Under the pieces are notes generated by a model that did not search any database, was not told where the DNA came from, and saw only the letters and a list, made by a program, of their open reading frames with translations. The position numbers and the translations under genes were made by a program. Shown in pieces: positions 25,817 through 34,467 of a DNA stretch of 51,714 nucleotides; the first letter of the stretch is position 1, and each line of letters opens with the position of its first letter. The stretch comes from Callorhinchus milii (Eukaryota). Where the stretch lies: positions 62,001 through 113,714 of the forward strand of contig NW_024704898.1 in NCBI RefSeq assembly GCF_018977255.1, written 5' to 3'.

Positions 25817-25944
25817 ATGTATGGGCTGTATCTCGAGGCTGTTAATGATTACATTAACGAATCGTACGGTGAGGACGTGTGGAGGCTGATCGAGGCTCGA
25901 GCAGAGATCCCACACCTCAAGTTTGTCAGACACCAGATGTACAA
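25817..25944 (+). CDS. Atypical sGC coding exon 1 (H-NOX N-terminus [22 protein letters not shown]...)
   Basis: acgATGT start; donor AA|gtgaga. Confidence 0.9.
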
Positions 25945-31900: not shown

Positions 31901-34467
31901 GTGTGTGTGTGTATGTGTGTGTGTAGGAGGGGGCGAGGCGGAGGGACTGTGGGATGGAGTTCCAGAGGATGGGGGAAGAATGGCAGAAGGTCCGCCCGCC
32001 AATAATGGGGCGAGCGAGGCGGAGGGAATGTGGGAATGGAGCTGGGCTGGGCCGGGGTTTTGAAGCAGGCCGGAGCCCGCTGAGCGGAGGGAGCGAGCAG
32101 GATGGTAGGGGGTGAAGAAGTCGCAGAGGTCGGGGGGAGTGAGGCCATGGAGGGCTTTGAAGGTGAGGACCAGGATCTTGAACTGTATCATCTGTGTGAT
32201 GGGAAACCAGAGGAGTTGGGGGAGGATGGGGGTGATAGGGTCATGGAACCTGATGCGAGAGAGGACACGGGGTGCAGAGTTTTGGATGATCTGCAGTCTG
32301 TGGAGGAAGGAGTTGGGGAGGTCGACAAGCAGGGAGTTGGCATAATCAATGGGAATTAATGTCGCCTCTTTTGCCATCAGGAATCCACTCGGGGATGGTT
32401 GTAGCCGGTGTGGTGGGTGTGATGATGCCGCGATATTGTCTGTTTGGAGACACAGTGAACACAGCTTCTCGCATGGAGAGTAACGGAGTGGTGAGGTTAC
32501 TAATCTCCTGTCTCTAACCCTGACCTGGGAGTGTGGACACACAGTGTAGAGGAGCTTTACTGTGTCTGTAACCCTGACCTGGGAGTGTGGACACACAGTG
32601 TAGAGGGAGCGTTACTGTGTCTGTAACCCTGACCTGGGAGTGTGGACACACAGTGTAGAGGAGCTTTACTGTGTCTCTAACCCTGACCTGGGAGTGTGGA
32701 CGCACAGTGTAGAGAGTGCTTTACTGTGTCTGTAACCCTGACCTGGGAGTGTGGACACACAGTGTAGAGGAGCATTACTGTGTCTGTAACCCTGACCTGG
32801 GAGTGTGGACACACAGTGTAGAGGAGCTTTACTGTGTGGGACACACAGTGTAGAGGAGCGTTACTGTGTCTCTAACCCTGACCTGGGAGTGTGGACACAC
32901 AGTGTAGAGGAGCTTTACTGTGTGGGACACACAGTGTAGAGGAGCGTTACTGTGTCTCTAACCCTGACCTGGGAGTGTGGACACACAGTGTAGAGGAGCT
33001 TTACTGTGTGGGACACACAGTGTAGAGGGAGCGTTACTGTGTCTGTAACCCTGACCTGGGAGTGTGGACACACAGTGTAGAGGGAGCGTTACTGTGTCTG
33101 TAACCCTGACCTGGGAGTGTGGACACACAGTGTAGAGCGTTACTGTGTCTGTAACCCTGACCTGGGAGTGTGGACACTGTAGTGTGAGATCTCATTGTGT
33201 CTGTGTACATCAGGGGATGCAAATACACATCAGTCAAACTTCCAAGGACCATCTGGAACATGAGCCGTACATAATCGAGGAACGGGGGAAGATATTTGTG
33301 AAGGTGAGGACTATAGCTTACATAGATCTGGGTTGGATTCCCGGGCGGGTCAGGTCAGGGCAAAACCTCAGGCAAGTTTTCTACACACACTCAGACACAC
33401 ACACACAGACACACACACACGCGCCTCTGGTTACCACCAGTAAGTAGGAACTTGTTAGTCGATTGGCGGATCGCTTTCCGGGGGTAATAATCCCTTCAAT
33501 AAACAATGATAATAATAATGTGGTCTCTCGCTCCATGACCGTGTGTGGGGACGTCGCCGGGCGCAATTGGCTGCCACATTTCGCCCACAAAATACACAGT
33601 CACTCCACTGAACAGCGTGTCCCGTGAAGCGCTTTGAGACGTCTCGAAAACGTGATCAGGCGCCGGGTCAAATGCCGGGATTATTGTTATATTATATTAG
33701 AGACAATTGGTCATGAGGCTCAGGCCGAGAGGAACTGTGGTGAGAGCGTGGAGCTCGGTGACGAAGGGAGTTTAATCTGTCAGTCTTGCCTTCAGGGGAA
33801 GGGCTATATGAAGACATATTGGCTGAAAGGCAAGCAGGACCTCTCCGCTGCCATGTCTCATCCCGGGGACCAGGACAGAGCGAATGAGGACAGCACCTCG
33901 AGGTGAGTGACAACGCCTCCCCCTGGACAACTGCCGTGACCGCAGCTCAGGACTCTCCATACACAGAGACTGGGCAGAACGCTCCTGTATACTATGTAAC
34001 ACCACACGGTGCGTTACTGGCTGTAACACTGGCTGCGGAGTCCCGTAGCTCAGGGGTTATTGCGCTCGCCTCGCAAGCGAGAGGACCCGGGTTCGATTCC
34101 CGGGTGGGACAGGACAGGGCGAGACTTTAGGCAAGTTTCCTTCCCCCACACACACACACACGGATTATTATTATTATGACACTGTATTATATGATAACAC
34201 ACTGTGTGTTACTCTGTCTAAACCCACAGCACAAACGTCATTGAGAAGACAGGAGGTGACCCTCAGGATGAACCAGTGGCTACAGAGGAGATAGCGCCCC
34301 CTACAGCCGAGATGGGGAAGCCATCATTGGAAACCAAGAGGAGCAGGAAATCCGAGGCCCTCGACTGCCCTGATGCCCCCAGCCCACACACAGTGCCCCT
34401 CACCAGCCATACCCACCGCCCAGTGCCAGGCCCGGTGTTTAGGAGCATCACCTGCTCACTGGTCTGA
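25817..34467 (+). CDS. Atypical soluble guanylyl cyclase (Gyc-88E/GCY-like; H-NOX, PAS/H-NOBA, coiled coil, cyclase, CaaX), 15 coding exons, about 764 aa
   Basis: Exons 25817-25944, (gap)26245-26370, 27008-27182, 27837-28186, 28752-28896, 29738-29854, 30136-30256, 30406-30535, 30640-30786, 31354-31500, 31697-31853, 32381-32490, 33214-33303, 33796-33902, 34230-34467. All visible junctions are GT-AG and phase-compatible. Motifs [67 protein letters not shown]. Confidence 0.93.
26245..26370 (+). CDS. Atypical sGC exon 2 (5' end hidden in N gap 26105-26244)
   Basis: [14 protein letters not shown]...GYERILK|gtgaac. Confidence 0.88.
26575..27005 (+). repeat. About 16-bp CT-rich tandem repeat (CTGTCACTCTCTCACG)n
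   Basis: Directly visible; runs up to the exon 3 acceptor. Confidence 0.9.
27008..27182 (+). CDS. Atypical sGC exon 3 (haem-ligand His, YxSxR motif)
   Basis: [32 protein letters not shown]...[15 protein letters not shown]. Confidence 0.93.
27837..28186 (+). CDS. Atypical sGC exon 4 (end of H-NOX, start of PAS)
   Basis: [11 protein letters not shown]...FDN...[11 protein letters not shown]...[14 protein letters not shown]. Confidence 0.93.
28752..28896 (+). CDS. Atypical sGC exon 5
   Basis: cag|[11 protein letters not shown] plus acidic tract; donor G|gtcagg. Confidence 0.85.
29085..29720 (-). repeat. 54-bp minisatellite family array with alternating 54/44-bp units
   Basis: The standard unit alternates with taaccctgacctgggagtgtagtgactgtgtgttactgtgtct[gc]. 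Confidence 0.93.
29738..29854 (+). CDS. Atypical sGC exon 6 (low-complexity insert, phase 1-1)
   Basis: tacag|AT GTG AAG...ACA G|gtaaga, 117 nt, open frame. Confidence 0.75.
30136..30256 (+). CDS. Atypical sGC exon 7
   Basis: ...[24 protein letters not shown]; donor gtgagt. Confidence 0.9.
30406..30535 (+). CDS. Atypical sGC exon 8
   Basis: [33 protein letters not shown]. Confidence 0.93.
30640..30786 (+). CDS. Atypical sGC exon 9 (coiled coil)
   Basis: [41 protein letters not shown]. Confidence 0.93.
30875..31240 (+). mobile_element. tRNA-derived SINE in sGC intron 9
   Basis: Head ggtggttagagc...ggttcgattccc plus shared body and tail. Confidence 0.75.
31354..31500 (+). CDS. Atypical sGC exon 10 (cyclase start)
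   Basis: [15 protein letters not shown]...[16 protein letters not shown]...VYK. Confidence 0.93.
31697..31853 (+). CDS. Atypical sGC exon 11
   Basis: [15 protein letters not shown]...ICDMAVDM...IQIRV. Confidence 0.93.
31925..32350 (-). mobile_element. L2-type LINE fragment in sGC intron 11
   Basis: IDYANSLL...[11 protein letters not shown]...[13 protein letters not shown]...[14 protein letters not shown]. Confidence 0.85.
32381..32490 (+). CDS. Atypical sGC exon 12 (guanylyl cyclase signature)
   Basis: [37 protein letters not shown]. Confidence 0.95.
32510..33180 (-). repeat. 54-bp minisatellite array filling sGC intron 12
   Basis: Tandem units, some truncated. Confidence 0.93.
33214..33303 (+). 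CDS. Atypical sGC exon 13
   Basis: [14 protein letters not shown]...EERGKIFVK. Confidence 0.92.
33796..33902 (+). CDS. Atypical sGC exon 14
   Basis: [13 protein letters not shown]...; donor AG|gtgagt. Confidence 0.92.
34230..34467 (+). CDS. Atypical sGC terminal exon ending in CSLV-stop
   Basis: cccacag|C ACA AAC, phase 2 matches exon 14; ends TGC TCA CTG GTC TGA. Confidence 0.78.

Follow-up and report, generated by a model that had tools for sequence, protein, structure and literature searches.

A Gyc-88E-type soluble guanylyl cyclase gene of jawed fishes and a paralogue with complementary changes in its catalytic site

Atypical soluble guanylyl cyclases (sGCs) of the Gyc-88E type are regarded as invertebrate. 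A stretch of 51,714 nucleotides of Callorhinchus milii (contig NW_024704898.1, positions 62,001 to 113,714; hereafter the window) carries a gene of this type at positions 25817-34467, which raises the question of what kind of enzyme a fish would build from it. We call this gene A, and gene B a second paralogue found in fishes. A and B carry mirror-image, complementary changes in their cyclase domains. We lean towards an A/B heterodimer with a single active site, in which O2 read at the haem of B would set the output of cyclic GMP (cGMP), and we give this account a little better than an even chance of being right.

Cyclase half-sites and haem pockets of A and B

In class III cyclases, one monomer supplies two metal-binding Asp and the triphosphate Arg, and the opposite monomer supplies the guanine Glu and Cys together with Asn, Arg and Lys (PMC2576301; papers cited by PMC number stand here for the parts of their text that were available). 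We counted the residues at these positions in 82 sequences of A and 41 of B, in 12 from amphioxus and in 54 from other invertebrates, using only the rows with a residue at the site and excluding eight short-contig matches; residue numbers follow P0001, a record from Callorhinchus milii that bears the label 'soluble guanylate cyclase 88E-like'. A retains the whole set of eight canonical catalytic residues with hardly any variation, the base and transition-state set being Glu512 (72/72), Cys582 (71/71), Asn589 (64/65) and Arg593 (65/65). The changes of A fall on the metal side, where Lys475 stands at the Gly of the phosphate-binding loop (P-loop) in 76/76 rows and Arg515 at the Gly before the second Asp in 72/72; several A-specific changes, at positions 477, 481, 495 and 515, lie on this side. 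B is the mirror image: its metal side is intact, with both Gly, both Asp and Arg561 in 40/40, and on the base and transition-state side Cys has become Gly, Asn has become His and Arg has become Ala, each in 40/40. Non-chordate invertebrates keep Gly515 (53/54), Cys (54/54), Asn (54/54) and Arg (53/53).

The motif around position 515 was matched by 109 of 144 representatives (three beta2-like ones being left out of the count), with Gly in 100 of the 109 and Arg in none. The same motif site is Gly928 in human RetGC1, as found by translating the mutagenesis primer printed in PMC7138296, and the Gly928Glu change strongly reduces the activity of that enzyme (PMC7138296). The conserved change from Gly to Arg beside a catalytic Asp argues against A being a stand-alone 88E-like homodimer. 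For RetGC1 it was also reported that a guanine-dead and a metal-site-dead subunit complement each other into one working site (PMC7939455).

The haem His and the YxSxR motif are retained by both A and B. In A, the proximal His104 is kept in 70/70 rows and YxSxR (Tyr133, Ser135, Arg137) in 75-76 of 76-77 rows per position. At the distal site, the equivalent of human beta1 Ile145, A has Phe143 in 74/76 rows and Tyr in 0/76, whereas Tyr is kept in 37/37 B, 12/12 amphioxus and 54/54 other invertebrate sequences; the window protein has no Tyr anywhere between residues 138 and 150. A distal-pocket Tyr is tied to O2 binding (Fitzpatrick 2006, PMC1435932), and with Phe in its place the O2-sensor reading fails for subunit A. 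The first-pass annotation of this DNA had taken A for a gas sensor of the fly and nematode O2-binding kind, which does not hold for A alone.

The pocket of A has been rebuilt in other places too, with Tyr5 (66/67 rows), Met73, Arg76 and Glu99 replacing Leu/Ile, Phe, Phe and Gly. These positions align to Val5, Trp74, Thr77 and Asn100 of the Nostoc H-NOX, whose Trp74 borders the distal pocket (PMC7356049); position 5 lines the distal pocket of the So H-NOX (PMC9542423). Up to residue 160, 11 changes at conserved H-NOX sites are specific to A and 5 to B, and the median H-NOX identity is 98% within the A clade and 97% within the B clade. Arg76 (26335-26337) and Glu99 (27041-27043) replace Phe and Gly jointly in clade A, and a compensating Arg76-Glu99 salt bridge beside the haem is possible. 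P0099, a divergent atypical cyclase, has Tyr5 and lacks the distal Tyr, as A does; as its branch lies apart from that of A, this exchange may have occurred twice.

Integrity, family and species range of gene A

Gene A lies on the + strand in 15 exons, within the same limits as in the first-pass annotation, and the intact, phase-compatible structure described there is confirmed. AG was found at 13/13 visible acceptors and GT at 14/14 donors, with agreeing phases, and exons 2-15 give 719 open codons followed by a single stop (34465-34467), compared with 35 and 33 stops per 719 codons in the two wrong frames. The protein is 764 residues long, three of them concealed by an assembly gap, and has a C-terminal CaaX. 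By Pfam, exons 1-3 encode HNOB, exons 4 and 7-9 HNOBA and exons 10-12 Guanylate_cyc; A combines an H-NOX domain, a PAS/coiled-coil region (HNOBA) and a class III cyclase in one soluble chain. The gap of 140 N conceals the acceptor of exon 2 and, we infer, about 7 of its coding bases. A stop or frameshift in this hidden start had been raised as a danger to the gene; P0001 shows neither, reading across the gap through three ordinary residues. Apart from the gap, the window protein and P0001 have a single point of difference, the 3' end of exon 5 (with 21 extra residues and one junction residue in the window protein), and the longer acidic segment found there is also present in teleost orthologues. 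It is hardly credible, in our view, that A is a pseudogene or an assembly artefact. The exon 2 start does fall in a gap, the adjacent semaphorin region looks mis-assembled, and no spliced transcript was seen among the eight short-contig matches, which were inspected for joined exons: at or near exon ends the alignments stop or gain inserts, which resembles intron read-through, so these matches provide no transcript evidence. Against this stand the open frame, the canonical splice sites, the open reading of P0001 across the gap and a core 93-97% identical to ray, coelacanth and teleost orthologues.

Trees were computed from 26 rows (LG+G4) and from 52 rows (LG+C20 mixture), with three beta2-like representatives left out. 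The 88E/beta3 clade was represented by 88E proteins with a species name, from Xylocopa, Galleria, Chrysoperla and Periplaneta, which stood in for named sequences of Drosophila, C. elegans and Manduca beta3. Solved chains served to identify the alpha and beta1 outgroup rows (beta1 by PDB match or tree grouping); the labels GCY31-like, GCY35-like, 89D-like and beta2-like are our assumption, made from motifs. Both trees put A inside the atypical clade with the named arthropod 88E proteins (100/100) and separate it from the beta1, alpha and beta2-like rows, and in the 52-row tree the 89D-like rows, provisionally so labelled, form a branch of their own within that clade. In the approximately unbiased (AU) test, grouping A with beta1 was rejected (p 1.2e-09), as was grouping it with P0140 (p 3.8e-110), a chordate-cluster row that is neither beta1 nor alpha by sequence matches and whose beta2 label is provisional. 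The core of A is about 58% identical to B, 52-53% to the 88E proteins of Xylocopa and Chrysoperla, and 33-35% to beta1-like rows. Placement in the Gyc-88E/beta3 atypical clade, and not with GUCY1B1 or GUCY1B2, is thus upheld.

We see next to no chance that A is a mis-labelled GUCY1B1 or GUCY1B2 orthologue. The monomer model of A, which has the expected domains with a low-confidence loop and tail (mean predicted local distance difference test, pLDDT, 71; predicted template modelling score, pTM, 0.39), does find sGC beta1 as its best Foldseek match (PDB 6jt0, E 3.5e-47), and human beta1 is the best solved-structure match of A. This is expected, because the Foldseek rows listed hold only sGC, membrane guanylyl cyclase and adenylyl cyclase chains and no 88E-type chain. 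Searches by protein feature likewise pointed to generic guanylate cyclase clusters only. The AU rejections, that of beta2 depending on a presumed label, and the 100/100 grouping both count against such an orthology, as does the first metal Asp472 of A, where human beta1 has Gly.

A and B are sister groups in the 26-row tree (92/83), joined with amphioxus at 98/98. Because the A+B node is weak in that tree and not settled in the 52-row one, the origin of the two genes by duplication in vertebrates is no more than plausible. The two 88E-like genes of amphioxus (P0239, P0248, P0291) form a group of their own. In one, Tyr stands at the transition-state Arg position, and the other contains two tandem alternative versions of the same catalytic segment, one intact and one degenerate, within one gene model; these changes may represent a parallel route to half-site subunits.

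Species range was assessed with exon 4 of A as query (90 matches among 132 candidates), with an amphioxus query (best 120 of 496) and with coelacanth B (best 120 of 464). Of the 90 exon 4 matches, 81 carry a species name, in all cases that of a cartilaginous fish, a ray-finned fish or the coelacanth. Paralogue B was revealed by the amphioxus query. Both genes are present in at least 20 named species (hand count over the three match lists), and they lie on contigs of differing size in the 17/17 species for which both sizes are given; tblastn with A and B found no second cyclase gene in the window. No tetrapod, lungfish or cyclostome name occurs among the matches listed for A or B in this word-seeded and annotation-dependent search, which, within the limits set by the seeding, the matches listed and the annotation, suggests that both genes were lost in tetrapods. 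The idea that A was kept in this lineage in particular has to be given up, since it is common to sharks, ray-finned fishes and coelacanth; the guess that automated fish annotations already use an 88E-like label proved right for dozens of fishes. Two zebrafish clone names were considered as gene candidates and rejected, one appearing in KEGG lists where it is probably an adenylyl cyclase and the other called uncharacterised in the available text (PMC10606920, PMC11664171).

A proposed A/B heterodimer and its alternatives

Gene structure, clade, residue pattern and the co-occurrence of A and B are observations. From the sequences we infer the dimer, its haem loading, its response to gas, the direction of the effect and the cell type. 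We propose that A is one subunit of a two-gene Gyc-88E-type sGC of jawed fishes and would pair with the unlinked B through the PAS and coiled-coil regions. In the cyclase dimer, A would supply the guanine-selecting Glu and Cys and the ribose and transition-state Asn and Arg, and B would supply the two metal Asp and the P-loop. With the mirror site dead, the pair would have one active site, a design like that of sGC alpha1/beta1 but derived from inside the 88E clade. Since only B has the distal Tyr, O2 would most likely be read at its haem, where binding would alter cGMP output; in flies O2 inhibits and cGMP rises in hypoxia, and the same direction is our default guess for A/B. The Phe pocket of A may relay the signal or bind NO or CO, and the enzyme would be anchored to membranes by its CaaX tails, probably in neurons.

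A complex model of A (residues 200-645) with a shark B (199-634) reached a score of 0.77, compared with 0.00 for the best control; contacts agreed by at least 87% between runs and the partner pLDDT was at least 76. In calibration, the mark set for such complexes was reached by 51/78 solved and 2/108 mismatched microbial pairs, and by 71/105 solved and 2/126 unrelated eukaryote pairs. As a similar complex, sGC alpha1/beta1, has already been solved, the pass shows likeness and not partner choice. Glu512, Cys582, Asn589, Arg593 and Lys629 of A all lie in the confident model interface, and Asn589 contacts B at the helix that follows the P-loop, an arrangement needed for the predicted live site; these positions give weak support to that site. 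The only expression record found concerns one 88E-like locus of pikeperch (either paralogue). It is transcribed in brain, where its counts were 3-10 in the first of two successive years and 1,222-2,171 in the second, and the paper groups it with genes that have no known activity in fish or brain (PMC12673963). The two available files of a gill single-cell supplement hold 0 gucy, guanylate or gcy entries (PMC9203529).

Several points weigh against a one-site heterodimer with O2 read at B. The metal Asp of A are invariant (76/76 and 72/72), as is Arg561 (71/71), all needless in a dead half-site, and B retains the guanine Glu. The RetGC1 precedent is a Glu and not an Arg, and an Arg could reach the phosphates. 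Position 475 is variable in invertebrates (Gly 29, Thr 20, Lys 1 of 54), which makes Lys475 weak evidence. The complex model cannot separate A/B from A/A or A/alpha1 and uses a B from another species; neither the A+B sister node nor its join with amphioxus is resolved in the 52-row mixture tree; and no data on A/B co-expression were found in the literature. Moreover, the clade-specific Tyr5 of A, at a pocket-lining position, might substitute for the missing distal Tyr.

This last point leads to an alternative that keeps the one-site heterodimer and moves the input to A, with NO or CO read at its apolar pocket, or O2 by way of Tyr5, and with the haem of B secondary. We think it unlikely. In sGC alpha1/beta1 the sensing haem sits on the Asn/Arg-donating subunit, which counts in favour of an input at A, as do the preserved His104 and YxSxR, the rebuilt pocket (Tyr5, Met73, Arg76, Glu99, Phe143) and the place of position 5 in the So H-NOX. 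Yet it is B that has the distal Tyr throughout and, with its fewer clade-specific changes, stays near the invertebrate H-NOX, and no precedent for Tyr5 as an O2 donor was found in the available text of the literature on H-NOX pockets. A further alternative dispenses with B: A would pair with itself, as Gyc-88E of the fly and beta3 of Manduca do, and Lys475 and Arg515 would reshape nucleotide binding instead of blocking it. Both 88E and beta3 are active as homodimers (PMC1435932) and the canonical catalytic residues of A are complete; we nevertheless find this quite unlikely, given the absence of Arg515 from all 109 other representatives, the crippling effect of Gly928Glu on RetGC1 (PMC7138296), the several A-specific changes on the metal-site side, and a B that is predicted to be incapable alone and to require exactly the set that A has.

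The last alternative, that A is an extra beta-type partner of a canonical alpha (GUCY1A1 or GUCY1A2) while B pairs with beta1 or beta2, appears to us improbable. Half-site logic would let any alpha-type subunit complement A, whose pocket lacks the Tyr as that of beta1 does. A is, however, far closer to B in its core than to beta1-like rows, and neither A nor B has a tetrapod among the matches listed, whereas alpha and beta1 persist in tetrapods. The A/B heterodimer may also be part of a wider picture, which we advance tentatively and think rather unlikely: jawed fishes would possess a two-haem guanylyl cyclase so far undescribed, whose complementary subunits arose from an 88E-type ancestor independently of alpha1/beta1; it would serve the neurons or chemoreceptor cells of water-breathing vertebrates as a direct O2 sensor with a second haem for another gas, both genes being lost together toward the air-breathing tetrapods. 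To our knowledge, the direct O2-sensing molecule of fish chemoreceptors is still unsettled. The two highly conserved fish genes come with a sharp prediction, namely that they would be inactive alone and active together, with O2 read at B.

Neighbours of gene A and related cyclases

The first-pass annotation had placed the gene between SEMA6C and TNFAIP8L2. Class-6 semaphorin fragments upstream and a TNFAIP8-family open reading frame (ORF) downstream bear this out in part (Table 1), and the order of the TNFAIP8-family, LysM and SCNM1 genes fits that which we take to be the human 1q21.3 order; the subtypes 6C and L2 are presumed. Among the semaphorin fragments, which represent the 3' end only, one exon matches SEMA6D/6A in the PDB and the terminal exon was judged by eye. 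As only such class-6 3' fragments lie upstream, 'SEMA6C' is a reasonable label with a presumed subtype. A scan of 147 ORFs (142 at 12.1-25.6 kb, of 216 candidates there) gave no Sema domain. In this region 207 bases are duplicated in inverted orientation around a gap at 13395-13419, and the local inversion is probably a mis-assembly. The LysM gene is presumably LYSMD1-like, a name suggested by its position. We also take it, in agreement with the first-pass annotation, that human 1q21.3 has no such cyclase gene between SEMA6C and TNFAIP8L2.

An arylamine N-acetyltransferase gene in a single ORF (6477-7412, - strand; Pfam E 1.8e-75) lies just past the semaphorin 3' end; the human NAT genes are presumably not at the SEMA6C locus. 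A 54-base minisatellite family forms separate arrays in both orientations (24475-25733, 29085-29731, 32509-33177 and 40682-41195), which include introns 5 and 12 of A. Seven tRNA-like matches (1892-1963, 17804-17861, 20712-20784, 34040-34111, 34643-34717, 51308-51379 and 51655-51712), one of them in intron 14 of A, look by eye mostly like heads of tRNA-derived repeats. Two retroelement fragments are on the - strand, an endonuclease match upstream of A (22658-22906) and, by eye, a frame like that of a long interspersed element in intron 11 of A (31823-32611).

Table 1. Position of gene A, its functional sites and its neighbours in the window
Feature	Position	Strand	Evidence
Class-6 semaphorin fragments (terminal exon, linker exon and, on the opposite strand, a PSI-like exon), upstream neighbour	10968-13626	-	subtype label presumed
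Exon 1: ATG, H-NOX helices A-B; clade-specific Tyr5 (25829-25831)	25817-25944	+	Pfam HNOB 1-41
Assembly gap, 140 N: exon 2 acceptor and, by inference, about 7 coding bases	26105-26244	.	P0001 open across
Exon 2, visible part: H-NOX; clade-specific Met73, Arg76	26245-26370	+	Pfam, alignment
Exon 3: H-NOX	27008-27182	+	Pfam, alignment
Exon 3 sites: proximal His104; YxSxR; distal-pocket Phe143	27056-27058; 27143-27157; 27173-27175		
Exon 4: H-NOX end, linker, first half of PAS	27837-28186	+	Pfam; 100% identical to P0001
Exon 5: PAS strand, acidic low-confidence loop	28752-28896	+	reading frame, P0001 alignment, model
Exon 6: insertion loop inside PAS	29738-29854	+	reading frame, P0001 alignment, model
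Exon 7: second half of PAS	30136-30256	+	reading frame, Pfam
Exon 8: PAS end, start of coiled coil	30406-30535	+	Pfam, model
Exon 9: coiled coil	30640-30786	+	Pfam; model helix 390-439
Exon 10: cyclase; metal Asp472 (31384-31386); P-loop Gly to Lys475 (31393-31395)	31354-31500	+	
Exon 11: guanine Glu512; Gly to Arg515 (31709-31711); metal Asp516; triphosphate Arg561	31697-31853	+	
Exon 12: guanine Cys582, ribose Asn589, transition-state Arg593, all intact	32381-32490	+	
Exon 13: cyclase; Lys629	33214-33303	+	
Exon 14: cyclase end, start of tail	33796-33902	+	
Exon 15: low-confidence tail; CaaX (Cys codon 34453-34455); stop	34230-34467	+	
Two AATAAA hexamers, candidate polyadenylation signal	34995-35010	+	role inferred
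TNFAIP8-family ORF, downstream neighbour	42024-42725	+	PF05527 E 8.6e-81
LysM-domain gene	47691-49518	-	LysM E 0.004, below Pfam cut-off
SCNM1 zinc-finger exon	50707-50997	+	PF15803 (zf-SCNM1) E 1.2e-16

Among known sequences, the fish records labelled 'soluble guanylate cyclase 88E-like' (NCBI/UniRef) are the closest, P0001 being protein A itself except for the exon 5 end. Since A is machine-labelled in many fishes, the existence of the gene is not new; the label lumps two paralogues that are 58% identical and is silent on their complementary sites, and it is the division of labour between A and B that appears to be new. The family phylogeny of 2006 covers insect and nematode members only (PMC1435932), the zebrafish gucy gene table of 2015 has 10 entries, none of them named as an A/B pair (PMC4480006), and no description of a vertebrate 88E-type cyclase pair was found in the available text of the open-licence literature, subscription journals and bioRxiv supplements lying outside this scope. 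GUCY1B2 is a beta-like vertebrate sGC of mouse and zebrafish olfactory neurons, with a low-O2 response in mouse (PMC4480006, PMC5196021); A belongs to a separate clade according to the AU test, which used one chordate row with a provisional beta2-like label.

The Gyc-88E/MsGC-beta3 proteins share with A the clade (100/100), the architecture, the haem His and YxSxR, and CaaX ends are common in both groups. A departs from 88E by the Phe in place of the distal Tyr, the rebuilt pocket and the Gly to Arg change beside the metal Asp; fly 88E can act as a homodimer, unlike the proposed A (PMC1435932). Paired atypical O2-sensing sGCs exist as 88E/89Da and 88E/89Db in Drosophila and as gcy-35/36 and gcy-31/33 in C. 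elegans (PMC9075734, PMC5196021), the fly 88E/89D heterodimers being O2 sensors that raise cGMP in hypoxia (PMC9075734, PMC2990333). In contrast to the fly pairs, both fish partners are on the 88E side and Tyr is present in B only.

The sGC alpha1/beta1 enzyme (PDB 6jt0) has the same fold, at about 31% identity, and the same split into a metal half and a base/transition-state half. It differs from A/B in two respects: in beta1 the first metal Asp is lost, while in A it is retained and two Gly are replaced; and a haem site is missing from alpha1, whereas B keeps His, YxSxR and Tyr. If the proposed pairing is true, A and B would show that a homodimeric cyclase divided into alpha- and beta-type halves on an independent occasion.

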